Source: Alphaproteobacteria bacterium (GTDB lineage Bacteria; Pseudomonadota; Alphaproteobacteria; UBA828). From it: a stretch of 64,000 bases of DNA. Position numbers and translations under genes: made by a program. Shown here piece by piece: positions 3,744-55,319 of this stretch. The stretch spans positions 736,001 through 800,000 of the forward strand of contig CBDCCI010000002.1 in the NCBI GenBank assembly GCA_965214705.1, given 5' to 3'. Position 1 is the first letter of the stretch; each line of letters starts with the position of its first letter. The notes under the pieces were generated by a model. The model saw nothing but the letters and a program-made list of their open reading frames with translations, did no database searches and was not told the DNA's origin.

Positions 3744-3829
3744 TGAGCGCCTCGCTCCCCGAGCGGGCGGCAGGAACCGGCGTCCGCGCTTCGTCCCCTT
3801 ACTTCACGCGTTTCTCCGCCCGGAGTCCG

Positions 3830-3900
3830 GCCAGCCGGAGCCGGGCAGGCCGGCGGGCCGTCGCGGGAGGACCCGCCGTGCGCCCAATCCCCGCCGCCAG
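3830..3900 (+). repeat. Leading-region intergenic repeat, copy 1
   Basis: GGAGTCCGG(C/T)CAGCCGG...GGGCAG core shared with the reverse complements of 10915-11035 and 13445-13590. Confidence 0.65.
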
Positions 3901-4398: not shown

Positions 4399-4991
4399 AT
4401 GCCCCAGGTCATAGAGATCACGGTCTACGCCATCGACGAGCTATCGGACGCGGCCAAGGAAGCGGCCCGCGCCTGGTATCGGGAGTCCTGCCTCGACCAC
4501 GAGTGGTACGACTTCGTCTACGAGGATTTCGGGACGATCTGCGGGATTCTCGGCGTCTCTCTCGGGACGACCCCAGTGCGCCTCTATGGCGGCGGAACGC
4601 GCGACAAGCCCAAAGTGTATTGGACCGGTTTCAGCTCACAGGGCGACGGCGCATCGTTCGAAGGCTCCTATGCCCACGCCAACGGAGCGGCCAGAGCGAT
4701 TCGGGCCCATGCGCCCAAGGATGACGAGCTGCACCGCATCGCGGACGCCTTGCAAGCCGTCCAGAAGCGCAATTTCTGGCAATTGCACGGCACAATCACT
4801 CAGCGCGGGCGCTACTGCCACGAGCACACCATGTCCATCGAGGTGGAGCGCGACAGCCCGACCTGGCGGCCGCCGACCGACGATGCCGAGGACGCGGTGA
4901 CCGAGGCCCTGCGCGATCTGGCGCGCTGGCTCTACCGCCAGCTCCGCGCCGAGTACGAGCACCTGACCTCGGACGAAGCGATCGACGAGAC
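4399..4991 (+). pseudogene. Conserved ICE protein (often labelled 'antitoxin of toxin-antitoxin stability system'), 5' part; split by inversion A
   Basis: VYAIDELSDAAKEAARAWYR and GFSSQGDGASF motifs; the last 16 codons lie on the minus strand at 13681-13634. Confidence 0.8.
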
Positions 4992-5282
4992 GCCCCCGGC
5001 CGGGTCGTAGCCGACGCTCCCGTCGGCGGCGACGACGACCTCGCAGGCCGGCGTGTCGGTCGGGCAGTGGATGGTTACGTTGCCACGGTCCTGGGCCATG
5101 CCGGACTCGACGGTGATGCGGCTCCCCGGATCGAGCCCGTGGTTCGCGGTCACGCCGGCAAGAGCCCTGACGTCTTCGGTCAGTGCCGGTTGCCCGCCAC
5201 CGCCGGCACAACCGGACATCGCCGCCGCGAACGTCACGGCCGCCGCCAGCAGATAGACGCGCCGAAACTCCCCGATGCGCAT
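4989..5282 (-). pseudogene. Lipoprotein 1 (TbpB-like C-terminal barrel), N-terminal part
   Basis: Signal peptide and lipobox-like MSG-C; joins in frame to 13683-14525 through GTC. Confidence 0.8.
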
Positions 5283-5432
5283 CGGGAACGATCCCTTGGA
5301 GTCATAGTGCATGCATCGAACCTTTCACTGTCCGGCGCCGCACGCGACCCGAGCGACTGCCTGCGTGGGCGGCGGAGCGGGAGCGAGGACGCCGCGAAGG
5401 GAAGACGGGTCGGGGCCTTTTGCCGGCAAGCG

Positions 5433-5981
5433 TCACGGGGTAACGCGCTTTCCGCCGAACGCTCCGGCCACGCCGTCGCGTTCGAACACGCCGCCGACCT
5501 CTTCCTCGTCGGGACCGTAGAACCGCCCCGAGATGGTGTCGTCCGGGGCGTTCCGCCGGGCGAAGCCGCCTTCCTCCACAGTCATGCGGCGCCACGCCAT
5601 GTCGTCGCGGCGTTCGCCGGTCTCGGTATTGGCGATGTCGGTGAACTCGACGTCCGCCGTGATCGCGCTCGCGCCGAACTCGACCGTCACGCCGGCATCT
5701 CCCCGGATCGTCTGGCCGCGGCTGGGCGATGCCCTCATCTCGCGGCCGATCATCAGGCCCTCCCAGCGGGCCGATCCCTCCGCGGCGCCGGGGTTCTCGC
5801 CCGTCGAGAAGCCGAACGAATAGCTCAACGCTACCGTCGCACCCCGGTCCGGATATCTGTCGCCCTTGAGCAGGACGGATTCCGTCGCGAAGAGGCTGTG
5901 GTCGAGCCAGCCGCCGAAGACGTGAACGTCCACGTTGTCGGTCGAGATGTCCTCCACCACCAGGCTCACGCCGCGGCGCGA
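5433..5981 (-). pseudogene. Lipoprotein 2 (TbpB-like barrel), C-terminal part
   Basis: GGWLDHS motif and ending GRFYGPDEEEVGGVFERDGVAGAFGGKR; joins in frame to 8470-8776. Confidence 0.8.
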
Positions 5982-8399
5982 CCGGGTTCGTGTCCGCCAG
6001 TTCCATCTCGCCCCCGCCCGCCGTCACCGTGAAGGCGGAGTCCGACGGCACAGACCCGTCCAGCGCCTCGTCGAAGACGAGCGTCAGCGTCGTCCCGTCC
6101 ACCGATGCCGAGGAGAATTCCGGCGCCCTGGTGTCCGCAGACGTGACGTTCTCCACCGTCTTGTCCGAGAAGCCCGCCACCGGGAGCTTTGCCTTGTCGG
6201 CGTCCCGGAGCGGATTCGTCGCCGGCTCGGCGTAGGCCACCGTCACCGTCTGGGCGCGGTGCGCCACCCCCGGGCGCAGGGTCAGCACCACCTGGTCGGG
6301 CTCGGGGCCGGCTTCGACGAAGCGAACCCTGAAGGCGACCGCGATGGGCGTCTGGTCCGTGCCGTCGACGCTCACGGTGAACGCCGCCGGCGCCGGCACC
6401 GAGTTCGTGTCCAGGTCCGCCTCGAAGACGATGGTCAGCCTGTCCCCGGTCACGCTCGCGCTCTTGAACGCCGGCGGGGTGTTGTTGGCCACCGACACCG
6501 GGGGGCTAATCCCGAAGTTTACCACCTCATTGCCCGACAGGTCCCGCAGCGGCGTTCCCGTGGGCTTCTGGTAGAGCACGCCCACGGTCTGGTCGTGGAC
6601 CGCCGCATCGGCATCCTCCAGGGTCAGCGTCACCGCATTCCCGTCGACGGCGACGCTGGCGGGCGACTTGAAGCCAACCCCGAACAGGTTGGCCTTGAAT
6701 CGCGCCCGGCCCGGCACCGAGCTCTCGTCCAGAGGCTCGGAGAAGATCAGCGTCAGCACCTTCGCGCTCACCGTCGCCGAGGTGAGCGTCGGCACCGTCG
6801 AGTCAGTGGTGTTGTTGGTCACCGTCTTCGTGTCGCCGAAGCCCGTCACCGGAAGGTTCGCGTTGTCCGAATCCCGCAGCGGCTTCCCCCCCGCCTGATC
6901 GGCGTCGTAGGCCACCGTCACCGCCGGCAGGCTGCCGCCCACCGACTGGGCGAGCGTGAGCGTCACCGTCTCCCCGGAGACCGCGACCGCGCCGGTGGCC
7001 GCCAGGCCCACCTCGCTCCCGCCCACCGTCACGGTGAAGGCGTCCTTCCCCGGAACCGAGCCCGTGTCCAGCGCCCCTTCGAAGGTGACCGTCAGCGCCG
7101 CCCCGTTCACCGATGCCGAGGAGAAGGCCGGCGGCGTGTTGTTGGTCACCGACTGGGCCGGGAAGGATGCCAGCACGTTGCCGGACAGGTCCTTGAACTG
7201 ATTGGCGGCGGGGCCGGGGCGCAGGTATTGCACCGTCACCGTCTGGCCGTGGTCGTGGCGCACCGCGTTGTTCTCGTGAGACGTCAGCGTCACCGTGTCG
7301 CCGTCGATGGCGTAGCTCAAGGGTTTGGCGTTGAATGACGATGAGCCTCGGATGATGAACGGGGCCAAACTCCCTCCCTGCGGCACGCTCTCGTCCAGCG
7401 CCTCGGAGAAGGTCAGCGTCATCGTCGTCCCGTTCGCCGTCGCCGAGACGAACCGCGGCGCGGTCGAGTCCGCCGGGGTCTGGTTGGTCACCGACTCGCC
7501 CGAGAAGTCCGGCACCGGAAGCTTCGCGTTGTCCGGATCCCGCAGCGGATTGGCGTCGGGCGCGGCGTAGCCCAACGTCACCGTGCCGGCGGTGGCCAGC
7601 AGCGCCTCGGCGAGCGTCAGCACCACCATGCTGGCGTCGCCGGACTTGAAGGCGACCCCGGCGGGCGTCTGGTCCGTGCCGTCGACAGTGACGGTGAACG
7701 CCGACGCCGCCGTCACCGAACTCGTATCCAGGACCCCGTCGAAGGTGACCGTCAGCGCCGCCCCGTTCACCGATGCCGAGGAGAAGGCCGGCGGCGTGTT
7801 GTTGGTCACCGACTGGGCCGGGAAGGATGCCAGCACGTTGCCGGACAGGTCCTTGAACTGATTGGCGGCGGGGCCGGGGCGCAGGTATTGCACCGTCACC
7901 GACTGGCCGTGGCCGTGGCGCACCGCATTGTTCTCGTGAGACGTCAGCGTCACCGTGTCGCCGTCGATGGCGTAGCTCAAGGGTCTGACGTTGAATGACG
8001 ATGAGCCTCGGATGATGAACGGGGCCAAACTCCCTCCCTGCGGCACGCTCTCGTCCAGCGCCTCGGAGAAGATCATCGTCAGCGTCGTCGCGTTCGCCGT
8101 CGCCGAGACGAACCGCGGCGCGGTCGAGTCCGCCGGGGCGGCGTTGGTCACCGTCTCGCCCGAAAAGTCCGGCACCGGGAGCTTCGCGTTGTCCGGATCC
8201 CGCAGCGGGTTTGCGTCGGGCGCGGCGTAGCCCACCGTCACCGTGCCGGCGATGGCCAGCAGCGCCTCGGCCAGCGTCAGCTCCACCATGGTGGCGTCGC
8301 CGGACTTGAAGGCGACCCCGGCGGGCGCCTGGTCCGTGCCGTCGACGGTGAACGCCGACGCCGCCGGCACCGAACTCGTATCCAGGACCCCGTCGAAGG
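5978..8399 (-). pseudogene. Large SwmB-like repeat surface protein, internal fragment (upstream part)
   Basis: Repeated units of about 100 aa (SASVNGxxLTxxFDxxLD...VTVxY...PLRD); no native start. Confidence 0.85.
7081..8399. repeat. Near-identical 660-bp tandem duplication within the SwmB-like gene
   Basis: 7081-7740 and 7741-8394 align with few substitutions and one 6-bp indel. Confidence 0.9.
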
Positions 8400-8469
8400 C
8401 GACCCGATGCGTGCCGTTCCCGCCCTCGCCCATGGCCCGCAGGCGCCGGAAGCTCCCGCGGAGGATCGC

Positions 8470-8776
8470 ATGAGAAGAGGACTTCCGAATGCGTCCGCGG
8501 CGCTCCTGGTCGCGATCGCGCTTGCGGCCTGCTCCAGCTCCCCGGATCCGGCGCCGCCCACCGCGGAAGAGCAGGCCCGGTTCTCATACGAGAGCATCGC
8601 GAGCGGCTCGAACGCGTTTCTGATGGGCGACCATCTCGGCTATTCCGGCGCTGACGGCGCGGTGGAACGGGTGGGCGTCAGGTGCCTGGACGATACCTGT
8701 GCGGCCGCGTTCACGGGGTTCTTCCGGTCGAGCGAAGCGAGCGTCGAGACCGCGGAGCTTGAATTGCTCGGCTCGC
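8470..8776 (+). pseudogene. Lipoprotein 2, N-terminal part
   Basis: GGAGG RBS, signal peptide and LAA-C lipobox; broken at TCGC 8773-8776. Confidence 0.8.
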
Positions 8777-10289
8777 CGTCGACGGCCCGAAGGTGATGCT
8801 GACGCTTGCCTCGCCGGTGCTGCACGGCCAGGCGGTCACGGTGGGCTACACGAGGCCCGCGGCGACAGGCGCGAGCCGGCTCCGCGACGCCCGCTCCAAC
8901 GAGGTCGCGAGTTTCGCCGGCGAGGACGTGACGAACCGCGCGCCGGCCCCCGCGCCGATCGTCGCGTCGGTGGCGATCGAGTCCACGCCGTCGGTGGACG
9001 CGGACAACGACGGCACGCCCGAGACCTACGGCCTGGGCGAGAATATCCGGGTGAGGGTGACCTGGTCGTCGAAGGTGCGCTGGGACGTGTCGGCCGCGAA
9101 CGCGGCGGTCTCGGTGCGCCTCGACGTGGGCGGGACGCTCAGGCCGGCGGTGCTGGCGACGGGCGGCGCGACCGGCGGCGAGGCGCTTTCGCTCCTCTTC
9201 AGCTACCGGGTCGTGGCGGAGGACTCCGACACCGGCGGCATCGCGGTGACGCCGACCGCGGCAGGCGACATCGTGGCGCTCTCCAACGGGGCGACGCTCA
9301 CGGATGCGAAGGGCCGCAACGCCTCGCGCACCCACGCTGCGGTTCTCGGGGGCGCGGGCCACAAGGTGAACGGCGGCAGCGCACCGCCGGAGTCGCCACC
9401 TGGGGAGCCGGACGACCCGACGCGCGAGCTTGTCGATGCGACGGCGAGCGGCGTGACACTGGCGCTCACCTTCCACGAGGACCTCGCGCCGGCGGCCGAC
9501 CCGGCGCGGGCGGCGACGGCGCTGCGCCAGGCGTTCATCGTCCAGGGCGGGCGCTACCAGGGAGCCCCGGTCGTCAACCAGTCCCCCAACCGGGTGGCGG
9601 TCAGCGGCCGGGTGGTGCGGCTCACCCTGGGCCAGGCGGTAGCGCCCGGCCGGCCGGTCACGGTGACCTACGTCAAGGAGGGGGCCGCGGTCCGGCACCG
9701 GCTCAGGTTCGCCGGCGGCGACGAGGTGGCGAGCATCGACAACCATCCGGTCGCCAACGCCGGCGGGGCCGACCCGAAGCCCCGGCTGTCGCACGCGGCG
9801 GTGGAGGGGAGCACGCTCGTGCTGGTCTTCGACCGGGGGCTGGACACGGGCTCGGTCCCGGCGGGTTCCCGGTTCCAGGTGGAGGGCAGGGGGCTCGCGA
9901 CCATTTCAGGCACGGGCGTATGGATTCCCGGCGGGGAGATGGTCGTGGTCACGCTGGCTCGGGCGGTGCCCGCCAGCCAGGACGTGGTGAGGGTGCACTA
10001 CGCGAGGGGCAACGAGGCGAAGCCGCTGCGGGGCGTCGCCGGCCACGACGTGGCGGACATCAAGAACTGGTGGGCCGCGGCGCTCGACGGGATGGGCCCG
10101 GTGGCGGTCTCCGGCAGCGCCTCCGGGACGAAGGTGACCCTCTACTTCGACGAGGCGCTGTACGAGCCCTCAAAACCGTCGACCGGGGCGTTCACCGTCA
10201 AGGTCACGCCGAGCGGGGGGACGGAGGCGACCCGGGCCGTCAACCGCGTGGATGTGGATGGCACCGCGGTCGTCCTCACCCTGCCCTTC
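8773..10289 (+). pseudogene. SwmB-like repeat protein, downstream part, truncated
   Basis: Continues the repeat broken at 5981 (TNPVA|VDGPKVMLTL) and ends mid-repeat. Confidence 0.85.
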
Positions 10290-10386
10290 ACCGTTGACTG
10301 AAACGATCCTCATTATCTCATGGGCAGGCGCATATGGTCCGTTCTTGCCGGCCTTGCGGATCCGGCATGACGGCGGGGTGCGGATG

Positions 10387-10647
10387 TCAGTGAAGCGTCT
10401 TGTCGCGGGAGCCAGCGGCCATGGACCGGGCGACCAGCTTGCTCCAGGCGTCGCGGTCGAGGCCGAGGCGGCGGTTGAGCCTGTCGCACAGCCTCTCCGC
10501 ATCGGCGAGCGTGAGTGCTACGAGCGCGGTGGGGATGTAGCCGTCCATCCCCTCGAAGACGATGCGGATCTGCTGCGGCTGGTCGGGCAGCTCGTAAGAG
10601 GGCGCGAAGGCGAAGACCGGCTCCTCGGGAAGCTCGTGCGTGGCCAT
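10387..10647 (-). CDS. Hypothetical protein (86 aa)
   Basis: MATHELPEEP... ORF with good codon bias. Confidence 0.6.
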   Translation of the reverse strand: MATHELPEEPVFAFAPSYELPDQPQQIRIVFEGMDGYIPTALVALTLADAERLCDRLNRRLGLDRDAWSKLVARSMAAGSRDKTLH

Positions 10648-10654
10648 CGAAGGT

Positions 10655-10840
10655 GGCCTCGCGCAGGGTGCGGGCATCCAGCGCGCGGCCGGCCTCCAGG
10701 ACGGGCAGCAGGGTCCGGGCCGCGGCCAGCAGCGCGGCGGGCGCGGAAGTGGGCTGCGGCGGGGCGGGTTCGGCGATCGGGGAGACGGGGACGGCTGGCG
10801 GGCGAGCGGGCGCGGGCGGCGCCGGGTGGGCGTCGAGCAT
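10655..10840 (-). pseudogene. N-terminal stub of a strawberry-notch-like methylase/helicase of alphaproteobacterial ICEs
   Basis: AAARTLLPVLEAGRALDARTLREA resembles the N-terminus of that family; the rest is missing. Confidence 0.55.
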
Positions 10841-10914
10841 GAGCAGGCTCCGGTGACGGGGGTGCGGGAAGAGCCGCGGCGGCTCGGCGCGGGGCACTGC
10901 CCTTCACGCCGCTC

Positions 10915-11035
10915 CGTCCGGCCTGCCCCCGGCCGGCTGACCGGACTCCCGCCGGCGCAAGGCGCGCCGGGGAAACCCGGCGCTAGCGGGGCCGGTGGAT
11001 GCGTTCAGGAAGGTGTGGAGGTGCCCTGTGAGTCC
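10915..11035 (-). repeat. Leading-region intergenic repeat, copy 2
   Basis: GGCCGGCTGACCGGACTCCCGC...GGCCGGTGGATGCGTTCAGGA shared with 13480-13590. Confidence 0.8.
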
Positions 11036-11065
11036 GCGCAGTTCAGGGCCGGCCAGGCGGAGCGG

Positions 11066-11299
11066 TCAGCGCAAGGCGCGGGCGAGGTGTCCCGCGTAGA
11101 CGCCGACGGCCCGCCAGTAGCAGGCCATTGGGCCCTTGTGCCGGCGCCACTGGAGCTCGGCGCGGTGCCGCGCGTCGGCACGGAGGTCGAGCAGTGCGGC
11201 ACGGAGCGCGTGGCGGGCGGAAGGCGGCAGGGCCTGGAAGCGCGCGAGCCATGCGTGCTTCAGGTCGGCGTCGGCGCGGTGGATGGTGGAGCGGGACAT
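11066..11299 (-). CDS. Hypothetical protein (77 aa)
   Basis: MSRSTIHRADAD...HKGPMACYWRAVGVYAGH; starts 4 bp after the upstream stop. Confidence 0.65.
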   Translation of the reverse strand: MSRSTIHRADADLKHAWLARFQALPPSARHALRAALLDLRADARHRAELQWRRHKGPMACYWRAVGVYAGHLARALR

Positions 11300-11303
11300 C
11301 GGA

Positions 11304-11379
11304 CTACCGGGGCCGGGCGTCGAGGTGGCGGAGCACGGCGCAGGTGAGCTCACGGATCTCCTCGTAGGCGCGCCCGGTC
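11304..11379 (-). pseudogene. C-terminus of the DUF6197-like gene at 12997-13398
   Basis: TGRAYEEIRELTCAVLRHLDARPR* continues EWNDRTG in frame across the CCCGGTC repeat. Confidence 0.8.
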
Positions 11380-11460
11380 GGCGATTCGGCCACCGACCCT
11401 GCCTACATCCTGAACGAGCGCGGCGTCGGCTACCGCATGCCACGGCCCGGCGCGCCCTGA
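11380..11460 (+). pseudogene. Last 26 codons of an OmpR-type winged-helix regulator
   Basis: GDSATDPAYILNERGVGYRM, a typical Trans_reg_C terminus. Confidence 0.75.
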
Positions 11461-11536
11461 ACGCTGTCAGCCCGGGACCGGGCGGGCCGGACGCACGGCC
11501 ACCCAGTCAGGCGAGTGCGGCGATCGCCGGGTCCCA

Positions 11537-11680
11537 TCGGGTACCGGCCGCCGGCACCAGAGACGATCGTCATGCCAAGCTGGCCGCCCGGCTCCGCTAC
11601 GCTCCGCCGGCCACCCAGCTTGGCCGAGAAGCCGGCTATGCACTAACATTCGAAGTGGACCAATCGACGGGGGCAGGTCA
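11537..11680 (+). mobile_element. IS3-family right-end relic
   Basis: GYRPPAPE transposase tail followed by ...GGGGGCAGGTCA terminal IR; the rest is absent. Confidence 0.75.
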
Positions 11681-12631
11681 ATGAAACTCATAGCCCGTAC
11701 CCTCTCCGCCGTGGCCTTCGTAGCCGCTTCGCTTCTTGCCAGCCACGGAACAGCCGGAAGCGTGGATGATGTTGTAAGGCCAGCAGAAGAGATTGCGCTG
11801 CATGACGCAGCGGGCCGTGTCGAGGCAGGCGGGCGTGCGGGGTTTGTTCCGACGGCGCTGCTGGCCGAAGCGGAAGTGGGGCCGAAGGCAGGGGAAACAT
11901 TCCGGGATTGCCCGTCCTGTCCGGAAATGGTGGTGGTGCCGGCGGGTTCGTTCGTCATGGGCTCGCCGAGGTCGGAAGTAGACCGTGACGGAGATGAAGT
12001 CCTGCAGCATGAGGTGACGATCTCGCAACCCTTTGCGGTGGGCAAACACGAGGTGACGTTTGCGGAATGGGATACCTGCGTATCCGCTGGCGGGTGCGAC
12101 GGGTATCGCCCCGATGACAAGGGCTGGGGCCGTGGAAGTCGGCCGGTCATCCATGTGACCTGGAACGAAGCGCGGTCGTATGTCGCGTGGCTGTCGCGGA
12201 AGACGGGGAAGGAGTACCGGCTGTTGACGGAGGCGGAGTGGGAATATGCGGCGCGCGCGAAGACGCGGACGCGCTATAGCTGGGGGGATTCGGTGGGCCG
12301 GAACCGGGCGAACTGCCGCGGCTGCGGCAGCCGCTGGGACGGCCGTGAAACGGCTCCGGCGGGTTCGTTTGCGGCGAACGGTTTCGGCTTGCATGACATG
12401 TCGGGCAATGTATCGGAATGGGTCGAGGACTGCTGGCACAATGACTATGCGGGCGCGCCGTCGGACGGCAGCGCTTGGGTGGCGGGCGGTGATTGCGGGC
12501 AGCGCGTATTGCGCGGCGGTTCGTGGAGCAACATACCGTGGTTCCTCCGTTCCGCCATCCGCCTCGGGTACAGCGTCGGGAACCGGGTCGTCACCTTCGG
12601 CTTCCGCGTTGCCCGGACGCTTACGCCTTGA
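11681..12631 (+). CDS. Secreted FGE-sulfatase/CLec-fold protein; probable DGR target
   Basis: Signal peptide; RLLTEAEWEYAARA, GLHDMSGNVSEW and RGGSW...GFRVARTL motifs. Confidence 0.9.
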   Translation: MKLIARTLSAVAFVAASLLASHGTAGSVDDVVRPAEEIALHDAAGRVEAGGRAGFVPTALLAEAEVGPKAGETFRDCPSCPEMVVVPAGSFVMGSPRSEVDRDGDEVLQHEVTISQPFAVGKHEVTFAEWDTCVSAGGCDGYRPDDKGWGRGSRPVIHVTWNEARSYVAWLSRKTGKEYRLLTEAEWEYAARAKTRTRYSWGDSVGRNRANCRGCGSRWDGRETAPAGSFAANGFGLHDMSGNVSEWVEDCWHNDYAGAPSDGSAWVAGGDCGQRVLRGGSWSNIPWFLRSAIRLGYSVGNRVVTFGFRVARTLTP

Positions 12632-12656
12632 GTCCTCACTTGTTTACCTCGGGGGT

Positions 12657-12675
12657 CCGGGGGCGGAGCCCCCGG
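12657..12675 (+). other. 8-bp GC hairpin with GGA loop (DGR-type cruciform)
   Basis: CCGGGGGC-GGA-GCCCCCGG, 25 bp after the stop codon. Confidence 0.75.
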
Positions 12676-12680
12676 CAGGA

Positions 12681-12947
12681 TTATTTCGCGGGGCCTCGTG
12701 CCGCCTCGACGACTATCGGCACGAACCGGCCGACCCCGACATCGCCCGCCGGCTCGCGAAACAGCCGACGCCACCTGAACACCTGATTGGCGTTGAGGTT
12801 GTAACGCTGCGCGACCATCGGCACCGAGACCCCAGGCTCACGGGTCTCCGCCACGATCTGCCGCTTCTGCGCCTCGCTCCACCGCCGACGACGGCGACCA
12901 ACCGATCCGCCGCCCTCCGCGCCCGGCTCGTCCTCAGAAACCGACAT
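12681..12947 (-). pseudogene. IS66 TnpA (HTH) fragment
   Basis: RRRWSEAQKRQIVAET...VAQRYNLNANQVFRWRR; no tnpB/tnpC adjacent. Confidence 0.8.
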
Positions 12948-12996
12948 CAGCTAAGGAAGGTCTGATTAGGTCGCGTGTGTCATAATTTGCGCACGA

Positions 12997-13398
12997 CCCG
13001 GTCCGGTCGTTCCACTCGATGACGGCTTCGAGACAGGGCTCGAAGGTGTTTTCGAACCGGAGGTGGCGGTGGAGCCTGCCGACGTTGACGTAGACGAGGC
13101 AGACCTGCTCGACGAGGTCGCCGAGGCACGAGGGGTCGCGGCCGGAGATGTCCCCGGTGTGGATCCGGATCGCGGCCCCGAGGCAGAAGCTGCGGGCGGC
13201 GTCCGGCGGCCGCATGGCGAGAGCGGGTTTGTGGTGCCTGCCCTCCTCGTCCTCGATGTGGAAACGGCCGTCGAAGGAGAGCGGGTAGCCGTCGTCGTCG
13301 CGGCCCCAGCTTCCCTGGTGCCAGCGTTTGGGCTCGTCGAGGGTTTCGTGGACGCGGCGGGCGATCTCGAGGAGTTGCTCGGGCGTGAGGGTCTGCAT
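12997..13398 (-). pseudogene. DUF6197-like protein, N-terminal part (156 aa when restored)
   Basis: WHQG, FCLGAA and WNDxxGR motifs. Confidence 0.6.
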
Positions 13399-13444
13399 TG
13401 CGGGGATCTCCCGATGCGAAGTGTGGGTGCAGCGGTCAGCGGCG

Positions 13445-13590
13445 GGGACGGCGCGAGGCCTCCCGCGCCAACCCCGCCGGGCTGCCCCTGGCCGGCTGAC
13501 CGGACTCCCGCTGGCGCAACGCGCGCCGGGCGGACCCGGCGCGAGCGCGGCCGGTGGATGCGTTCAGGACGGTGTGGAGGCGCCTCCGGA
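13445..13590 (-). repeat. Leading-region intergenic repeat, copy 3
   Basis: Similar to copies 1 and 2. Confidence 0.8.
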
Positions 13591-13630
13591 GCTCGAGCCG
13601 TTGAGGGCCGGCGCGGGACGTGCGGCGGTG

Positions 13631-13685
13631 TCAGACGAAGTATTCGCCCGCTGCCGTGAAGGTCGATTCGTTGGTGGCGAGGGTC
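13631..13685 (-). pseudogene. Displaced C-terminus of the 4399 gene
   Basis: (T)LATNESTFTAAGEYFV* completes EAIDET. Confidence 0.85.
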
Positions 13686-14525
13686 CCCGCCATCGTGCCC
13701 CTGTCTCCGGCTTCCGATTCGGTCGAGGATCTGCTGCGGCGCAGGTTGCTGGATTCGACCTGGCCCGTCGCGGTCGGCTTCGGGGGAGGAATCGCGACCT
13801 GCGAGGCGCTGGGGTGTCCGGTCGCGGACGCGATCCACGTCGACCGGCCCGCCGCGGGCGGCGCCCGGCACCCGAGCGACGATCACCGGCCCGATCTGTC
13901 TGGCTTCGAGCTCCTCGACCCGCGCCGGGGGATCGCGTTGGCAAGCAAGGCGCGGACCGTGGTCGAAGGGCAGCGTTCGGCCCTCCATCGGGCCTTCGGC
14001 GCCTGGACGGACCATGGGTTCTTCCTCGTGGAGACATTCACGATGCAAGGGGACGCGGGCCTCGGACACTACAAGACCACCTGGTTCGGAGACGCGGTCC
14101 ACTCCGGCCCGCTGGCCTCGCCGGGCGACAGCGCGACCTGGTCCGGCGTCATGTCCGGCGTGGAGACCTCGCCGTCCGGCGGGCCCAGCGCCTTCGTGCA
14201 CGGGGATTCCGCCATTACCGTTTCCGGCCTCGCGGCCGGAGTTGAGGTCGAGGTCGCGGTCGCGTTCACCGGCATCGTGAACGAGGACACCGGCGCCGGG
14301 ATCGGCGACATGGTCTGGCGGGGACTGCCTCTTCAGAGCCGGGAGTTCGGGACCGACGATGTCCGGTTCAACGACGGGGAGGGCTACTTCCGGGACGGGA
14401 GCTTCGGCGCCACGGCGGAGGGAAGCATCTACGGCCGCCTCTACGGCCCCGGTCACGAGGAAGTGGGCGGGCTGTTCCACCGCGACGGCATAGCGGGCGC
14501 ATTCGCGGGCAAGCGCGATCGGTAG
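13683..14525 (+). pseudogene. Lipoprotein 1, C-terminal part
   Basis: GAWTDHG motif and ending GRLYGPGHEEVGGLFHRDGIAGAFAGKR; paralogous to lipoprotein 2. Confidence 0.8.
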
Positions 14526-15055
14526 GCGGCCTCATTGACGTGGCGTCCGCCCGTCGTCGGGTAGCAGCGCCCGAAGCGTATCGGCGTTGGCGGAACCCCT
14601 TCAACAAACCTCACCTGTTCCACCTGAGGGTCTGGTCACTGTAGATCGCGCCGGCCTCAGTCTTGACCCTGCAGTCACTCGACGCGATCAAGCACTTCGA
14701 GTGCCATAAACTGTTCTTGCGGCTTCATAATTTGCTCCAGCGGGAGCTGAGTCGAGCCTCCGGGCTTGGACGGCGCGCGGCAGCGTCTCTTCACCGTCCA
14801 CCGCTACCCTGAACGCCGATCAGGTCACGAGCAGTCTTGAGCTCCCTGGAAGTGGATTGCGCGCGATTCCCATGCGATTCCCAGTTGAACGCCACGGACG
14901 TAGATTCCTCTGTTGCAAGGCGGCTGACGGCTTTTGCGTACCGGCATGTGCATTACCGCGGGGTCGACATGCGACCCCAACTATAGACATCCGGACTCGC
15001 GGCGTTGTCGTATTACAGGCGATGTCCATCCCACAATACTAATCTAGTGCGGTTG

Positions 15056-20745: not shown

Positions 20746-21927
20746 TCATGCCTCCGGTGCGCTGGTCTGGTTCGCTTCCTTACCTTCATCGTTGATTGCC
20801 TGTTGCAGTGATGAAGCGATCCGCTCCGACGCCCGCTGCAGGGGATCGTCCGCGAGATGCGCGTACCGCGCTGTGGTCTGAGCCTGTGTGTGGCCGAGTA
20901 TCCGCCCCACCATCGGCAGGCTCTCGCCTCCCATCACCGCCTCGGAGGCGAACGTGTGCCTGAGGTCATGGATGCGCACGTCCTCGAGCCCGGCCGCCTT
21001 GCGGACTCGCCGCCACGGCTTCTGCAGATCAGTCAGATGCGCGCCCTCTGCGGTCCCGGTGATGACGTAGGGGTTACCCTCGACACGCTTCGTGCCGGCC
21101 AGAACCTCCAGCGCCGGCCCGTTGAGGGGGATCGTCTTGGCACCCGTCTTCGAATCCGGCAAGTGGATACGGTGCCCCCGGATGTGTTCCCACTTTAGCG
21201 TCTGGATCTCCGACAGGCGTGCGCCCGTGTACAGCAGCAGCCGAAACGCCGTCACCGCCGACGGCGCGAACGACTCTTCCTCATCCAGTGCCTTGCCCAG
21301 ACGCGCCAGCTCGTCCGCCGTCAGGAACCGCTCGCGTTTCTTCTCCTTGTACTTGCGGACGTGATAGCACGGATTCGAGCGATCCGGTCGCAGGCCCCAC
21401 GCCTCGGCCTGGTTCATCATCTTCGACACCACCCCCAACGTCCGGTTGGCCTGATAGGGCTTCTCCCGCATCTCGTGATGCAGCGCCGCCACGTCGTCAC
21501 GTCCCAGAGCCGTCACCTTGATCGAGCCCAGCGCCGGCAGGATGTAGCGCTCCACGGCATGCCGGTACTCCACCCCAGTTCGCGGCTTGCAGTGATCCGG
21601 CACGTATTCCTTGAGGAACCGGTCGGCGAGCTCGGCCACCGTGGGCGACAGGCGCTCGGCCTCCTTCTCCTTGTTCGGGTTCCTGCCCTCGTCGATGTCG
21701 GCGATGATCTTGCGTGCGCGCGCCTTGGCCTCCTCGAACGGCACGAGGCCATGGCGCCCGATCTGCACGCGGATGGTCTTCCCCCGCCGGAAGGTCTGGG
21801 CGACGTAGCGCCTGCCGCCATTGGGATACACCCTGGCGCCGAAGCCCTTCAGCTGGTCGTCCCAGACGAAATACTCCTTCTCGCGGACGGGGAGGGCGTC
21901 GATGTGTCGCTTTGTCAGCCTGGGCAT
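20746..21927 (-). CDS. Tyrosine integrase with arm-binding domain
   Basis: TGARLSEI, HDLRH and LGHT...TARY motifs; adjacent to the att site. Confidence 0.92.
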   Translation of the reverse strand: MPRLTKRHIDALPVREKEYFVWDDQLKGFGARVYPNGGRRYVAQTFRRGKTIRVQIGRHGLVPFEEAKARARKIIADIDEGRNPNKEKEAERLSPTVAELADRFLKEYVPDHCKPRTGVEYRHAVERYILPALGSIKVTALGRDDVAALHHEMREKPYQANRTLGVVSKMMNQAEAWGLRPDRSNPCYHVRKYKEKKRERFLTADELARLGKALDEEESFAPSAVTAFRLLLYTGARLSEIQTLKWEHIRGHRIHLPDSKTGAKTIPLNGPALEVLAGTKRVEGNPYVITGTAEGAHLTDLQKPWRRVRKAAGLEDVRIHDLRHTFASEAVMGGESLPMVGRILGHTQAQTTARYAHLADDPLQRASERIASSLQQAINDEGKEANQTSAPEA

Positions 21928-22087
21928 GAATCGATCTCGGAATGCATTCGGAACTTTACTTTCGGCGCTTCCTGTCTACTCTAGTCCGCTCGCGGCCGCA
22001 AGCAGGAGGATGTAAGCCGTTGGCATATAGGAAGAAAGTAACCTCCAGTCCGTTCTAGTCCGTTCCTGTCCAATGCCGATTATCTAC

Positions 22088-22132
22088 CTCATAACCTGAA
22101 GGTCGTAGATTCAAATCCTACCCCCGCAACCA
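22088..22132 (+). other. att site: 3' half of tRNA-Met(CAT)
   Basis: CTCATAACCTGAAGGTCGTAGATTCAAATCCTACCCCCGCAACCA; no 5' half; one T-stem mismatch. Confidence 0.88.
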
Positions 22133-23771
22133 CCGAGACCGACATTCCCGAAATGGGCGTGTCGGTCTTTTCTTTTTCGGCTCCGCTTCCCGTCCACTCC
22201 AGTATCCTGCCGAGCTCGCCGCGCAGCGTGACCTGGAGTTCGCCGCGCTTTTCGCCTGGCGTCAGCACGATCCCGTCGATCAATCCGCGGATCGCAGCCG
22301 CGGCTGCATCACGTTCTTCCGGCTTGCCGAGGGCGTTCGCGAGACGCGCCACCTTGCGGCGATAGACGCCGGCGACGTTGGGGTGGATGTCCGGGATCTC
22401 GGCAGGAACCGTTGCGAGCCGTTTCGTCAACTCCACCTTTCGCGCTTCAAGCTTGTGCAGCCGTTCCTTGAGCACGGCGCTGTAGGCGCCGTCCTGGATG
22501 GCGTCGACGATCCCCTCGATGTTCTTCTCGACGTCGGCCAGCTCCCTGCGTTCCGCCTCGCTTGACGCAGAGCGTTCGCGGTTGAGCCGGTTGGTCTCCT
22601 CCGCCCAGGCGCGCACCGCTGCGTCAGCTGCCTCGGGCGCCATGAGGTGATCCTTGAGACCGACCAGGACGCGCTCCTCGAGTTCGGTGCGGCGAATGCC
22701 CTGGCTGTTCGAGCAACTCCCGTTCATGACGTGGTTGGAGCAGCCGTAGCGGTCCTGCCCGCGCATGGCATAGGGACCGCCGAAGGCGCCGCATTCCAGG
22801 AGGCCGGAGAGGAGATGCCGGGGACGATGGGTGCCGTTCAGGCGATTGGCACGCGCCGTGCGCGTGGCCTCGATGACGGTGGCGTATTTCGCGGTGAGTT
22901 CTTCCTGGCGCTGCTTCACCGCCTGCCATAGCTCGTCGTCGACGATGCGGAGCTCGGGGACCTCCGCGACGATCCATTCCTCGCGCGGGTTGATCCGCGA
23001 CACCCGCTTGCCGGTCTCCGGGTTCTTGACGTAGCGCAGCCGGTTCCAGACCAGGCGTCCGATATAGAGCTCGTTGTTGATCAGCCCGGTGCCGCGCTTC
23101 ACCTGGCCCCGGATGGTGGAGTCGGTCCAGAGCTTGCCCGAAGGACAGGGGATCTTCTCGGCATTCAGGCGCCTGGCGATCGTCCGCGGACTGACGCCCG
23201 AGGTGAAGTCCCGGAATACGCGCCGCACCACATTGGCCTCGACCTCGTTGATCGTGCGCTCGCCCCGCACCGGCTCGCCGGCGGCGGCATCGAAGGTCGT
23301 GACGACGTCGTAGCCGTAGCAGAGCCCGCCGCCCGAGCGGCCCTTCTCCACCCGGCCGCGCAGCCCGCGATGCGTCTTGGCCGCGAGGTCCTTCAGGAAG
23401 AGCGCGTTCATCGTGCCCTTGAGCCCCACGTGCAGTTCGTTGATCTCACCCTCGGCGAGCGTGACGATCATCACCCGGGCGAACTGAAGGTGCTTGAACA
23501 GTGCCGAGACGTCGGCCTGGTCCCGGCTCATCCTGTCGAGCGCCTCCGCCACCACGACATCGAAGGCGCCGGAGCGGGCATCCGCCAGCAGCGCCTGGAT
23601 GCCCGGGCGCAGGATCATGCTGTCGCCCGAGATCGCCGCGTCGCGGTAGGTGTCCACGATTGTCCAGCCCGCGCGCTCGGCGTGGTCCCGGCAGATCCGG
23701 AACTGGTCCTCGATCGAGGCCGCGCTCTGAAGGTCCGAGGAGTAGCGGGCGTAGAGGGCGGCGCGGATCAT
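22089..23771 (-). CDS. Large serine recombinase
   Basis: YARYSS catalytic motif, DRMSR, recombinase domain, Zn-ribbon and coiled coil; C-terminus read from the antisense tRNA sequence. Confidence 0.92.
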   Translation of the reverse strand: MIRAALYARYSSDLQSAASIEDQFRICRDHAERAGWTIVDTYRDAAISGDSMILRPGIQALLADARSGAFDVVVAEALDRMSRDQADVSALFKHLQFARVMIVTLAEGEINELHVGLKGTMNALFLKDLAAKTHRGLRGRVEKGRSGGGLCYGYDVVTTFDAAAGEPVRGERTINEVEANVVRRVFRDFTSGVSPRTIARRLNAEKIPCPSGKLWTDSTIRGQVKRGTGLINNELYIGRLVWNRLRYVKNPETGKRVSRINPREEWIVAEVPELRIVDDELWQAVKQRQEELTAKYATVIEATRTARANRLNGTHRPRHLLSGLLECGAFGGPYAMRGQDRYGCSNHVMNGSCSNSQGIRRTELEERVLVGLKDHLMAPEAADAAVRAWAEETNRLNRERSASSEAERRELADVEKNIEGIVDAIQDGAYSAVLKERLHKLEARKVELTKRLATVPAEIPDIHPNVAGVYRRKVARLANALGKPEERDAAAAAIRGLIDGIVLTPGEKRGELQVTLRGELGRILEWTGSGAEKEKTDTPISGMSVSVVAGVGFESTTFRL

Positions 23772-36474: not shown

Positions 36475-38946
36475 TCATCCGACCTCCGGCAGGCGTGGGC
36501 GGCTCAGCAGGTCATTGCCGGCGATCTCTGGCGAAGCGGCGCCCGACCTCTCGACGGTGTAGCCAAGGCTTTCATACCCTCGGACGCGCTTCTCGCTCAT
36601 GCGCATGAGCGTCGGCACGGCCTGGTCGACATAGTCGTGGACCAGCACTTCGTGCTTCGCGGCGTGCAGGCGGTGGAGGCGGCCGACATATTGCGCGAGC
36701 GTGCCCTTCCACGAAATCGGCATCGTCAGGAACAGGGTGTCGAGGCGGGCGTCGTCGAAGCCTTCGCCGACATAGCGGCCTGTCGCGATCAGCACCCGCT
36801 CTTCCGTCTCGGGGATGTCTTCGAGACGCTGCATGATCTCGCGGCGCTGCCTGGTCCCCATGCCTCCGCGGAGAACGAGCACGTTCCGGGCAAAGCGGCC
36901 GAGCCGCTCCGCAAGGCGGTGGGCATGGTCCTTGCGTTCGGTGAGCAGGATCGGCGAGCGGCCCGCCTCCAGCGCCTGCAGCACATCGTCGAAGATCATG
37001 TCGTTGCGATCCTCGTCCGAGGCCAGCGCGGCGTATACATGCTGGATGAGCGGGCGCTCCGCGTCCATGCCGGCCGGCAGCCGGAATTCCGTCGGGCGCA
37101 GGATCGCCCGGTGTCCGAAGGGTCGTTGCCGGGCCTGCGCCTTCGCGCTGGTGCTGAACCGGACAGGACCGCACTGCATGAAGACGATCGGATGGTGACC
37201 ATCCCGGCGCGTGACCGTTGCAGACAGACCGAGGACGTATTTCGCCTTCGCCCGGCGCGCGACCGCCTCGAAGCTGACGGCGGAGATATGGTGGCACTCG
37301 TCGACCACGAGATGTCCGTAATCGGCGACGATGTCGTCGACCTCGCCCTTGCGCACCAGGCTCTGGATGACACCGACATCGACGATGCCGCCCGGTTTGC
37401 GCCTGCCGCCGCCGATTTGCCCGATCGCGGCGACCGGAAGATCGAGAAACGCCGCGAGCCGCGCGATCCATTGTTCCATGAGCTGGCGCCGGTGGACCAG
37501 CACCAGCGTGTTGGTCCGGCGGGCGGCGATGACGGCCGCGGCGATGACCGTCTTGCCGAACCCGGTCGCCGCCGCGAGCACGCCGATGTCGTGCGGCAAC
37601 AGTGCATCGGCGGCGGATTGCTGCTCCGGAGTCAGGCTTCCGAGAAACGTCGTTTCTACCGGACGGCCGGGATTGCGCTCGTCGCGCATGTCCAAAGGGA
37701 TGCCCAGTTCTTCCAGCAACCCCTCCATCGCCTCGCCGCAGCCGCGAGGCAGGGCAATGTGGTGAGACAGCAACTCGGCGCAGGCGACGATGCGCGGGAT
37801 GCCGAAGGTGGAGCGCCGCATCGCCTGAGCGCTGTAGAAGGCCGGGTTCTGGAAGGCCGCGAGACGGATGAGCCGGTTGACCAGACCCGGCGGCAAATTG
37901 GCGCGCGGGATGTAGATCTGGTCGCCCCGAACCGCGTCGATCCGCTCCGGCAGCGGTCCGGCAATCTCGGGCAGCGGCCGGCGCCGCGACGGCGGCGCGC
38001 TCCAGGGCTCGTCGTCCTCTTCGTCGAGCGGCAAACGCAGCCCGACAACCCGGCCCTGCCGGCCAGCCTCGTCAACGATGGCGGTCGCCTCGGCCAGGGA
38101 GAGGCGGCGCATGGAGGAGAGGAAAGCCCACTGGTCGGCATGGGGCTCGAAACTGTCGTCCAGAAAGACGCTGTTGCCGTCCTCGCGCGGACCGCCCTGC
38201 AGCGGCAGCGCGATGAGATTGCCGAAGCCGCCCGCGGGCACGGTGTCCTGGCTCGGGAAGAACCGGTCGTAGGACGCGAACCCGATATCCGGGTTGCGCT
38301 CCATCGTCTCGGTGACCAGATGGGCGCCGAGACGGCGGGCGAGGGCGGCGGGCACCGGCTCGACGAAGAAGATCCAGACATGCCCGCCATTGCCCGAACG
38401 CGAGCGTTCGAGAGCCGCCGGCACGCCCTTCAAGCGGCAGGCTTCGAGAAAGGCGCCCGCGTCCCGTCGCCAGCTCGCCTTATCGAAGTCGGCGGCGAGA
38501 ATCCGGCAGGTGTCGTCCGGGAGCATGGGATAGACGCCGATCGTGTGGCGGCCGCGCAGATGCCCGTCGATCGCCTCGTCCGTCACCTCCCGGAACGCCT
38601 GGTTGGGACAGGCGCCGCACTTGACGCGCGGCTTGCCACAGATGCGGGGCGCCCACTCATTGGCGCAGACCGGTGCGTATCCCGCCTTGCCTGTCCCGGC
38701 GTTGTCCCAGCGCTTCGGATAGACGTCCTCGCGGCCGCGAAACAGGGATCTGAACAGCGCGATCTTGTCGTGTGCCGACGAACGGTTGGTGATCGGTCCC
38801 GCGGACGGCAGGACATCCTTCAACGCGGTGGGCGGATTCCCAATCTCAGCGAGACGGGCCTCAAGGGTCGCCTTCTCGGCCTCAAGACGCGCAAGCCGCT
38901 CGCGTATGAGCGCGGCTTCCTCGTCGTGGGATGAAGCGTGCGCCAA
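36475..38946 (-). CDS. AEP primase-polymerase/SF2 helicase fusion (IEE/TOTE-like), about 823 aa
   Basis: LFRGREDVY, DFD, SRSGNGGH and GNLIALPLQ (AEP-type); ATGFGKT, DECHH, SAT and QYVGRLHR (SF2); start codon estimated. Confidence 0.85.
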   Translation of the reverse strand: MAHASSHDEEAALIRERLARLEAEKATLEARLAEIGNPPTALKDVLPSAGPITNRSSAHDKIALFRSLFRGREDVYPKRWDNAGTGKAGYAPVCANEWAPRICGKPRVKCGACPNQAFREVTDEAIDGHLRGRHTIGVYPMLPDDTCRILAADFDKASWRRDAGAFLEACRLKGVPAALERSRSGNGGHVWIFFVEPVPAALARRLGAHLVTETMERNPDIGFASYDRFFPSQDTVPAGGFGNLIALPLQGGPREDGNSVFLDDSFEPHADQWAFLSSMRRLSLAEATAIVDEAGRQGRVVGLRLPLDEEDDEPWSAPPSRRRPLPEIAGPLPERIDAVRGDQIYIPRANLPPGLVNRLIRLAAFQNPAFYSAQAMRRSTFGIPRIVACAELLSHHIALPRGCGEAMEGLLEELGIPLDMRDERNPGRPVETTFLGSLTPEQQSAADALLPHDIGVLAAATGFGKTVIAAAVIAARRTNTLVLVHRRQLMEQWIARLAAFLDLPVAAIGQIGGGRRKPGGIVDVGVIQSLVRKGEVDDIVADYGHLVVDECHHISAVSFEAVARRAKAKYVLGLSATVTRRDGHHPIVFMQCGPVRFSTSAKAQARQRPFGHRAILRPTEFRLPAGMDAERPLIQHVYAALASDEDRNDMIFDDVLQALEAGRSPILLTERKDHAHRLAERLGRFARNVLVLRGGMGTRQRREIMQRLEDIPETEERVLIATGRYVGEGFDDARLDTLFLTMPISWKGTLAQYVGRLHRLHAAKHEVLVHDYVDQAVPTLMRMSEKRVRGYESLGYTVERSGAASPEIAGNDLLSRPRLPEVG

Positions 38947-39161
38947 GTCGTCCCCGTTTCGTAGATCGACCCGCAAATGCCGGCGAGGGAGCAGGATAGT
39001 GCGCCCCGAAAGCCCCGGTAAACATCGCCACCGCCGCGTACCGTTCAGCCCGCGCCTCCTCCAGCTCCTGCTCCGCATTGGTTCTGGGCGCTCTTTGAAT
39101 GTCCGGGGCGTACGCTTCTTCCACCGAATCCGTGAAACAGCATGAGCCGGACCGGAAGCGG

Positions 39162-40457
39162 CTAGTCGCGGACAACGAGGATAGCCGAGAGAGAGCCAAG
39201 CGGATCCGCATTTTCGAGCCGGTTGGCCAGCAGGTAGAGATCCCGGGCGTGCATCCCGAGTCTCCGGTGCCGCCACACCAGACACTGCACGCCGTTCAGC
39301 GTTCCGTGGCCATCCGTCGGGCTTTGTTCCCCTGCCCCATAGAAGAGAAGTGTGTTTCCCCCGTACATCCAGTCCGCACGGAGGGCCGGAGGATGCTCGG
39401 ACAGCAGCTTCTCGAAGGAAGCCAGATCCTCGCCCTCGGCGCTTGTTCCGGCCGGCTGGGGCACGCTCACGACGCATAGGCCGAGGGAAGACGGCACCAC
39501 GCCCCAGTCGCCGTGATTGTCGTTGCCGGGTTCCCGAGCGCCGTGCTGCACGTCGCCGCCGCGTCGCCGGAGCCGCTCGTGTCCGGAGAAATACCGATAG
39601 GCCTCGATCTGCGCGGACACGATCTCCGGAAGAAACGTCGGGTACGGCGTGTCGGCCTTGACCAGGTTGGCTCCGTGAACGCTGTCGCCACGCCTGAACC
39701 GCGTCGTCGGCTCCGCATAGTAACGAGAGTCTGTGTAGACCCCGCTGCTCGAACCGTAGGTGCTGTTATACCTCCCCAGAATGGCTTCCACGGTTGGGGG
39801 CTCGATGCCGAGGGCCGTCAGGTTGGTGTTCAGGTATGACTTGGAAAACACGGCGTCGATCCGGTCGCGATGAGCGGGATGGAGCGCCTTGTACAGTCGT
39901 AGGAGGGAATGCCCGGACGCGTCCTTGTCGTCCCTCGTCAGGCAGGCCTTGAACCCCAGTTCGGCGGCCGTGACGAGGAGGTGCAGCGCAAGCATGATCT
40001 CGACCAGACTGGCCGGCAGTCGTCCGGCCGGCACAGCAGCGTTGTAGAGCCTGAAATACTGCTCCGCGAACTCGAGCATGAGATCGGGGTCGCCGTGGCG
40101 GTCGATGACCGTGCCGTCCTGCACGTTGCCCTCGAATGTGGGCCACAGCGCGTTCCGGCCGGCCCGATAGGCGGCGGGGAACTGGACGGACACGAAGTCT
40201 CGCCTGTCCGCGGGCAGGTTGTGGAGCATCACCTGCCGGCGGCGCACATCGCCGGTTCGGGTGTCGCCGTCCGCGGCGCGTTCCACCGGCGTTTCGTGCG
40301 CCAGGGGATCGTCCGTAGTCCGCCGACCGCATGCGGGGCAGAGATACTCTGTCTCCTCTTTGACCAGATTCCCGAGGAGCCGAAGTCCGAACCGGAACGC
40401 CTTGGGCGTGGCGATCAGCTCGGTATCGGTGCATGCGTCGCAAACACGGTTCATCAA
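39162..40457 (-). CDS. Hypothetical protein with N-terminal Zn ribbon and HEPN-like region
   Basis: CxxC...CxxC; ELGFKA, GHSLLRLY and SRY. Confidence 0.55.
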   Translation of the reverse strand: MMNRVCDACTDTELIATPKAFRFGLRLLGNLVKEETEYLCPACGRRTTDDPLAHETPVERAADGDTRTGDVRRRQVMLHNLPADRRDFVSVQFPAAYRAGRNALWPTFEGNVQDGTVIDRHGDPDLMLEFAEQYFRLYNAAVPAGRLPASLVEIMLALHLLVTAAELGFKACLTRDDKDASGHSLLRLYKALHPAHRDRIDAVFSKSYLNTNLTALGIEPPTVEAILGRYNSTYGSSSGVYTDSRYYAEPTTRFRRGDSVHGANLVKADTPYPTFLPEIVSAQIEAYRYFSGHERLRRRGGDVQHGAREPGNDNHGDWGVVPSSLGLCVVSVPQPAGTSAEGEDLASFEKLLSEHPPALRADWMYGGNTLLFYGAGEQSPTDGHGTLNGVQCLVWRHRRLGMHARDLYLLANRLENADPLGSLSAILVVRD

Positions 40458-53159: not shown

Positions 53160-54071
53160 CTAAGAGTGCCGCTGTGGCGGCTCATAGGAAATTGCGATTG
53201 CAGGTATAATTATAAAGTATAGATATATCCATAAGGAATATAATAGGCTGCGAGTATGAGACGGTGCATGGCGCGAGCGGCGATGGAGACGGGTCACCCG
53301 AGGGCGCCGCGCTTCCCGGTGCGGGGTCAGCCCCACCGCTTTCGCAACGCGAATGCGACGAACGACCCGGCGGCGCAACGAGCGGGCCCGGCAGGCCTTG
53401 CCGAGTCGGCTCTTCACGCACGCCGCCACCCTGCTCCCAGCCTCCGGAAAGGAAATGTGAAATGAAGACGCGACATTCAATTATTGGCTTGTTGGCATTC
53501 GCATTCATCGCGGCCGTTGCGGGCGAAGCCTGGGCCGCGTGCACGGGCAGCAACAGGATAGATCACAGCGATGCCGAGTGTCTGCATGGCTGGTGGGACA
53601 ACAACAGTTGGCCAAGGGAGTCGACCTTTGGCGCGCAGAACCTGTGCCCGGACTGGGGCACGGTCGTCGCGAAGGTGGATATCGCAGGAACCAGCGACAG
53701 GACGTGGCATCTCGCCAACGGCGACAAGAGGCGCGGCAGAACCTCGTTCACGGTTCGGGACATGGTTAAGGGTTGGGCAGGCTCTCTCTCGAGAGCCTGC
53801 CCAACCCTTTTGAACGAAGCCGCGGGCCACGAGAGGCGAAGTTGAGCTATGTGGAAAGTGCGCTGATGTCAGCGTCAGGCGGCATCCACCGGCAGCAGAG
53901 TTGCGCATAAAATCGACGCTCGCGCCGGTCTTTCGGCAGGCATGCGGGCGCACGCTGCGAGGACTGAGCGGGGTGTGAGCCGAGGGCTGTCAGCCCGGCT
54001 CAAGCGGAGACAGGTTCGGTCGTGCGTCGGCGCTTTGGCGCCGTTGCGCGGGGCCGAAGCGAGCGGGCGTC

Positions 54072-55313: not shown

Positions 55314-55319
55314 GCGCCG

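Follow-up and report, generated by a model that had tools for sequence, protein, structure and literature searches.

The window analysed here is a stretch of 64,000 nucleotides from the IS-rich genome of a sponge-associated bacterium (7.9 Mb in 3 contigs), in which a mobile island bounded by copies of the tRNA-Met 3′ end contains a short segment, designated inversion B, whose ends cut two genes (Table 1). One encodes a lipoprotein (lipoprotein 1) and the other an adhesin with SWM repeats; the upstream neighbouring unit encodes a TrwC relaxase. The Slam-type label given to lipoprotein 1 refers to two matches of its C-terminal half, one to Pfam above the cut-off (PF01298, 32 bits, cut-off 26) and one to NCBIfam below it (NF041636, Slam-dependent lipoprotein, 37 bits, cut-off 80). 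No alternative in-frame product arises from B: the frame of the N-terminal half meets a stop at 8796, 5 residues past the joint, to give 108 aa, and that of the SWM upstream part, the 5′ end of which is absent, now continues into an antisense tail, and at the left joint its GC3 drops from 0.93 to 0.55. The outcome of B is loss of function, with a signal-peptide half lacking its barrel, a barrel lacking its signal peptide, and an already truncated adhesin fragment split in two.

The SWM gene is cut at both ends (8401-8404 and near 10284-10302) in either orientation of B, at joints that we call C and D, and in the genome G008 the homologous frame of its downstream part continues for more than 4 kb further. 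Joint C falls where a preceding lipoprotein gene ends in the paralogous array. The proposal that it is one end of a third inversion was rejected, as tblastn returned no reciprocal piece and SWM matches were confined to the window and C1:3.43 Mb; given this lack of a reciprocal partner, joint C is probably a deletion or a capture. An intact SWM 5′ end in the metagenome run X1 was also considered and set aside, the record concerned (record 1, 684 bp) having the exact length of a collapsed repeat cycle and being uninformative.

A second exact inversion, A (4989-13685), encloses B, and its two ends have 3 bp in common (GAC/GTC). Undoing A restores the island backbone gene, the final codons of which now lie at 13631-13682 on the minus strand, and lipoprotein 2; the ancestral joint in the backbone gene is present in G014 and G006 (95-97% identity), and lipoprotein 2 is intact in G008 (85%). 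The backbone gene gave no Pfam and no NCBIfam match, and the label 'ArdC-like' for the gene at 4399-5043 does not stand. Of the four genes that A and B interrupt, three encode surface proteins (two lipoproteins and one SWM adhesin fragment). A may originally have been shorter, if the SWM piece and an FGE-sulfatase cassette arrived later. Four illegitimate joints within 10 kb mark a decaying region.

Table 1. Positions of the rearranged genes, exchange sites and neighbouring island features within the window
Feature	Position	Strand	Evidence or remark
Island backbone gene	4399..4991	+	215 aa restored; 11 distinct continuous homolog copies
A, left core GAC	4989..4991	+	sequence and homologs
Lipoprotein 2, N-terminal part	4992..5312	-	continuous in G008 at 85%
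Lipoprotein 1, C-terminal half	5433..5977	-	TbpB-type barrel, now without signal peptide
Left palindrome	5969..5978	.	perfect, 10 bp; centre 4 nt outside left B core
Inversion B	5978..8776	.	2,799 bp counting both cores
B, left core GCGA	5978..5981	+	read in sequence
SWM-repeat (SwmB-like) gene, upstream part	5982..8404	-	PF13753, 7 stretches; GC3 drop
Joint C, GACC	8401..8404	.	SWM gene joined to spacer upstream of lipoprotein 1
Lipoprotein 1, N-terminal half	8470..8776	+	signal peptide, lipobox-like LAAC (by eye); paralog match
B, right core TCGC	8773..8776	+	read in sequence; spanned by contigs of X1, X17 and X19
Right palindrome	8775..8786	.	perfect, 12 bp; centre 4 nt outside right B core
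SWM-repeat gene, downstream part	8777..10301	+	PF13753; ends within a repeat
Joint D	10284..10302	.	SWM fragment joined to island backbone in mid-repeat
A, right core GTC	13683..13685	+	spanned by contigs of X17 and X19
Lipoprotein 2, C-terminal part	13686..14525	+	continuity in G008
Tyrosine integrase of island	20746..21927	-	nearest recombinase, 12 kb from B
tRNA-Met 3′ copy	22088-22132		just after island integrase

The cassette itself (11379-12997; FGE-sulfatase gene and IS remnant) interrupts a DUF6197 backbone gene and is flanked by 7-bp direct repeats, GACCGGG; in G014 this gene is joined, with a single GACCGGG copy, and G002, G005, G008, G017, G018 and G020 carry most of the cassette at 97-99% identity. 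Members of a GC-rich intergenic element family, 78-85% alike and possibly single-strand promoters, lie upstream of small backbone genes (3807-3857, 10918-11053 and 13477-13612), and the order of the gene modules between them differs among relatives. TbpB-barrel lipoproteins like lipoprotein 1 form a tandem array at G000:C2:74051-75767 of this genome and are kept in G006, G007, G008, G017 and G019; the island copy is 86-87% identical to some metagenome copies vs 83% to the array paralog.

Ancestral order and orientation in metagenome runs

The restored lipoprotein 1 was aligned to 22 distinct homolog copies (29 rows, 7 of them duplicates) from this genome, five relatives and metagenome loci. 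The ancestral state was found in all 22 and the flipped state in none, with no gap at the joint in any copy (0/22) and a compensating pair of 1-nt gaps about 15 nt from it in three; the alignment to the paralog at G000:C2:74051-74925 is likewise free of gaps at the joint. SWM homologs in G008 and G009 are continuous through the other joint of B. At the core position the five closest lipoprotein homologs read TCCC (four) or TCGC (one), and TCGC also occurs in three SWM repeats elsewhere, so that, judged from these alignments, both cores of B predate the event. The same homologs and repeats excluded a core made by the event itself as a duplicated overhang, for which GAGC in the C2 paralog had been a hint. 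Because the homologs run continuously through both joints and the cores are older than the event, the present order across B is, on this comparison, the derived one, with no base lost or gained.

The preliminary description had placed GCGA and TCGC at the positions where we find them; the match is of exactly 4 bp and cannot be extended by one base on either side. It had also stated that an in silico flip yields a 283-aa lipoprotein through joints that are exact and in frame, and that B is nested; the flipped gene indeed lacks internal stops, the homolog alignments are gap-free at the joints, and an outer inversion, A, was found that restores two more genes. Its further claim, restoration of the SwmB-like frame, holds for a continuous frame with the joints as quoted and does not extend to the whole gene: since the SWM piece is bounded by joints C and D, the flip of B brings back lipoprotein 1 in full but the SWM gene as an internal fragment.

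The stretch occurs in runs of sponge metagenomes and in runs whose organism label is a code. Contigs of four of these 20 runs (X1, X2, X17 and X19) were compared over 8090-15000, leaving out X3-X16 and X21 (small or no share) as well as X18 and X20. The right joint of B appeared in the window orientation, with no differences, in three of the four runs and in two studies: in X1 (study P1) on a contig covering 8686-8967 at a depth of 3.5, with 87 and 191 bases on either side of the joint, and in X17 and X19 (study P7) on contigs covering 8686-10558 at depths of 15.4 and 49.7. The X17 and X19 contigs break at a paralog-shared stretch about 80 bp away. X1, which differs from X17 and X19 in study and year, has 6 differing letters in about 5 kb among the pieces listed. 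The right joint of A and joint C were spanned by X17 and X19 (two of four runs) and joint D by all four, while X2 has no cover at 8783-9013 and X1 no piece across the right joint of A among those listed, which are holes and not evidence. The flipped-back form of B was absent at the right joint from the contigs of the four runs over 8090-15000, contigs being prone to drop rare variants, and no loose end or joint fell at 8773-8776 among the 24 of 295 loose ends and 32 of 468 pieces listed.

The window form of the contigs from X1, X17 and X19 argues against misassembly. An assembly or library artefact, either a chimera or a misjoin, is extremely improbable: the genome is very rich in repeats (five or more self-matches overlie 22-33% of each contig), X17 and X19 may be source material and the run contigs cover the right joint of B only, yet X1, of separate study and year, spans that joint with no differences and the assembly contains the reciprocal partner joint. 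The view of the preliminary description, that B is a true reciprocal inversion and not an amplification chimera, is borne out at the right joint by the contigs of three runs in the window orientation; reads in the restored orientation alone, which it had named as contrary evidence, were not what these runs gave. We hold with high confidence that B was exactly inverted between two pre-existing 4-bp cores, with two genes cut and no bases lost or gained, and that the samples hold the inverted form. B is real, apparently fixed or nearly so, and destroys genes.

Contig depth in X17 declines from about 15 to 10 to 7 toward the right end of the island (12885-15000), with no mirror of this in X19.

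Switches, end-joining and further inversions

As a mark of invertons and shufflons we took inverted repeats of about 11 bp or more at the ends. At the ends of B no inverted repeat exceeds 4 bp, gapped or longer forms included, and the two ends are not connected by any of the window's 25 longest inverted pairs. Recombinase domains were absent from the ORFs scanned between 3744 and 20700, the nearest being those of the island integrase (20746) and of a large serine recombinase (22089). Neither an IS copy nor a long inverted repeat was found at the ends of B, both of which lie within coding sequence, and no multi-copy element is present there. Because it has no inverted repeats, no adjacent recombinase and no in-frame fusion, B does not look like a programmed switch, and no sign of reversibility was found. 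A reversible phase-variation switch that alternately expresses and silences two surface proteins, whether of the intergenic style or as a partial intragenic inverton, is accordingly very unlikely in our judgement. The preponderance of surface proteins among the cut genes (three of four) and the exactness of the flip, which makes it reversible in principle, would suit such a switch; against it stand the 4-bp limit of the inverted repeat, the truncation of the SWM gene at both ends whichever the orientation, the ancestral state of 22 of 22 lipoprotein homolog copies, and contigs unbroken across the right joint at depths of 49.7 and 15.4, in which, rare variants being dropped from contigs, a low-frequency flip is possible. 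Like the (partial) intragenic invertons of bioRxiv 10.1101/2023.03.11.532203, B has ends within genes, truncated products and surface proteins among its targets; in the available part of that report, however, invertons are defined by inverted repeats and usually occur in both orientations, whereas B has no repeat pair, a single observed orientation and no linked invertase.

The Ku gene (PF02735) gave no match in this genome, which is 98% complete, with a positive control in 1 of 14 genomes; this argues against classical end-joining.

A second inversion of this kind outside the island was not detected in three genome-wide scans, each of limited sensitivity. A scan of paralogs for strand switches, which missed inversion A and is limited in sensitivity to that extent, returned five low-copy candidates, namely B and four at inverted repeat copies. 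In a comparison with G017 that covered 2.0 Mb of about 4.8 Mb (1.61 Mb aligned, 94.6%), none of 25 strand switches had both ends within 100 kb. The codon-based scan gave 21,136 candidate pairs, of which 6,403 were tested, and 9 restored joints with a spanning homolog, five of them at B and four at a pair of inverted repeat copies; an unfiltered first pass of the genome-wide scan had been dominated by IS ends. In the 38 kb upstream, further inversions were not seen by eye among the matches listed.

Short homology, palindromes and the route of exchange

Random break pairs drawn in the region share at least 4 bp in 2.9% of draws and at least 3 bp in 7.9%. Sharing is above chance at both A and B, and short homology therefore probably guided both events; the homologies, 4 bp at B and 3 bp at A, pre-exist in homologs, as in microhomology inversions.

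Each core of B also adjoins a perfect palindrome (Table 1). The two differ in sequence and have an equal offset at both ancestral sites, and in the ancestral lipoprotein gene the left one belongs to a longer, imperfect hairpin; it is conserved coding sequence in most homologs. Both ancestral sites of A carry 4-bp arms round a 3-nt loop, offset as in B. Compared with site pairs in the same genes and of the same core length (loops up to 4 nt, offset within 12), dyads matched in offset and as good or better occurred in 10 of 14,217 comparable pairs for B and 68 of 8,829 for A, counts that include the observed pair. The Fisher p is 7e-5, or 4e-4 under looser settings, and is an after-the-fact statistic, the pattern having been noticed before it was tested. 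When only loop-free palindromes are admitted A is unremarkable (8,560 of 8,829 pairs as good), and the geometry differs between the events, the core lying in the loop in A and in the arm in B. The hairpins are also short: for 51-nt stretches at the four present-day joints, folding is no stronger than that of shuffled sequence (z from -0.51 to +0.76), and no shuffle control accompanied the folds of the ancestral sites.

Cumulatively, we favour, at a probability of roughly 0.55, the reading that B is a single past accident, now fixed, in dispensable cargo of the tRNA-Met island, and that it arose by a microhomology-primed, hairpin-guided template switch. Two switches during DNA synthesis would be involved. 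A nascent 3′ end in GCGA would quit its template at the first palindrome and prime on TCGC beside the second, on the opposite template; the segment would then be copied backwards until the first palindrome blocked synthesis just past the core, and re-priming would occur through the same 4 bases. Since each core lies against the inner side of its hairpin, the same 4 bases would serve in both switches and the exchange would be exact.

A related scheme, template switching between two structures, is proposed in section 12 of PMC3161906 for inversions in starving E. coli, where, in the available part of the text, 1-2 kb of single strand is assumed and the joints are not quite reciprocal. Those inversions resemble B in lacking long repeats, in short junction homology, in putatively stem-forming sequence at both ends and in the two switches proposed; they differ in that the joints of B use the same 4 bases with nothing lost or gained, that B (2.8 kb) exceeds 1-2 kb, and that it is a natural, fixed event and not a laboratory one. 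We infer that B is exact, as the E. coli cases are not, because its cores abut the hairpins from inside. The sizes of B and A (2.8 and 8.7 kb, vs 1-2 kb) argue against a single fork; also adverse to a template switch are the exactness of both inversions, set against published joints that are not quite reciprocal, and the fact that no enzyme or intermediate was observed. Salmonella chemostat inversions (PMC3411829) are likewise unprogrammed and bounded by short inverted homology, although the verified cases in the portion of that text at hand have 12-18 bp (candidates of 7 and 9 bp being unverified) vs 4 and 3 bp here. B belongs, as far as these partial sources go, with the unprogrammed microhomology inversions of PMC3411829 and PMC3161906.

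A one-off event of breakage and rejoining at staggered double-strand cuts, for instance a swap between two cleavage complexes of gyrase or topoisomerase IV in which complementary overhangs at the two sites permit exact inverted religation, is an unlikely origin of B. Type II topoisomerases cleave with a 4-nt stagger, equal to the 4-bp core of B. Break-and-reunion gives exact reciprocity and has no size limit, so that the 8.7-kb A fits; yet the core of A is 3 bp, the palindromes centred 4 nt outside the cores are left unexplained, and genome-wide action would be expected where none of the 25 strand switches against G017 is local, although selection on the core genome may hide events. In PMC11164529 it is surmised that interface swapping by gyrase may lead to illegitimate recombination and to micro-inversions; it resembles B in allowing exact exchange without long homology, while the part of that text available contains no in vivo demonstration and the scheme does not account for off-centre palindromes.

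We consider it rather improbable that B is the product of a single action on cryptic sites by a resident site-specific recombinase, be it a tyrosine, a large serine or an IS110 bridge enzyme. Such enzymes exchange exactly and are plentiful in the genome (54 IS110-family and 11 serine-recombinase matches, with many tyrosine recombinases), the dyad symmetry recalls recombination sites, and three of the four half-arms at the B dyads resemble GYGASC by eye. The 8-bp palindromic centres, however, match at 0 of 8 positions and remain with the outer flanks, A and B have no motif in common, and 12 kb separate B from the closest recombinase. Inspected by eye, the ends and flanks of seven mobile families (one IS91-like and six IS110 types, four with one usable flank pair) lack a GCGA or GAC core. 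IS110 bridge recombination would call for one site that is the donor joint of the element and for cores that fit its target, and the ends and flanks of the six IS110 types gave no such match by eye.

It is improbable that the island family possesses a structure-guided, sequence-independent reciprocal recombination in which two unrelated short hairpins are aligned in register and all four strands are exchanged at a shared core of 3-4 bp, perhaps while the island is single-stranded during transfer. If so, this route would have struck twice in 10 kb, could shuffle or silence surface-protein cargo without a repeat or an adjacent invertase, and would form a class invisible to repeat-based inverton finders. 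To point to a new recombination route, the event would have to be shown to reverse, or to recur at dyads of this kind. The literature, covered in part and without supplements, yielded no paper on the locus or on exact inversions at matched dyads.

Under the favoured reading, a template switch at short homology, B is ordinary in function and mildly curious in mechanism. Together with A it is a clean case from nature in which exact inversions, one nested in the other, arose at 3-4 bp of homology and destroyed surface-protein genes carried as island cargo, and it illustrates that an exact reciprocal flip need not imply a programmed switch and that such events evade repeat-based searches. The matched palindromes are a testable hint as to how very short homologies are chosen.

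Several further observations concern the surroundings of the island. Tandem islands are stacked at one tRNA-Met (G000:C3:666311-666387, 713357-713451 and window 22042-22136), each with a tyrosine integrase, and are followed by a large serine recombinase element (window 22089-23771) with a close match in G017. Between 15000 and 21000 GC content is lower (56-59%), and this stretch carries an HTH-ParA gene and an AbiEii-type nucleotidyltransferase gene beside an unnamed partner. An AEP-TOTE primase fused to a helicase is encoded at 36475-39477, and a 1243-aa protein combining FG-GAP, ASPIC/UnbV and vanadium haloperoxidase-type domains at 44445-48176. The element at 53764-56429, encoding an IS91-type Y2 transposase and a tyrosine recombinase, has 67 other copies at 97% identity or more; its ends are GGTTAAGG and TCGTTCAA, with AA or TTCG before them in most cases, and one copy splits a type IA topoisomerase gene adjoining recQ (L026:5793-10840).
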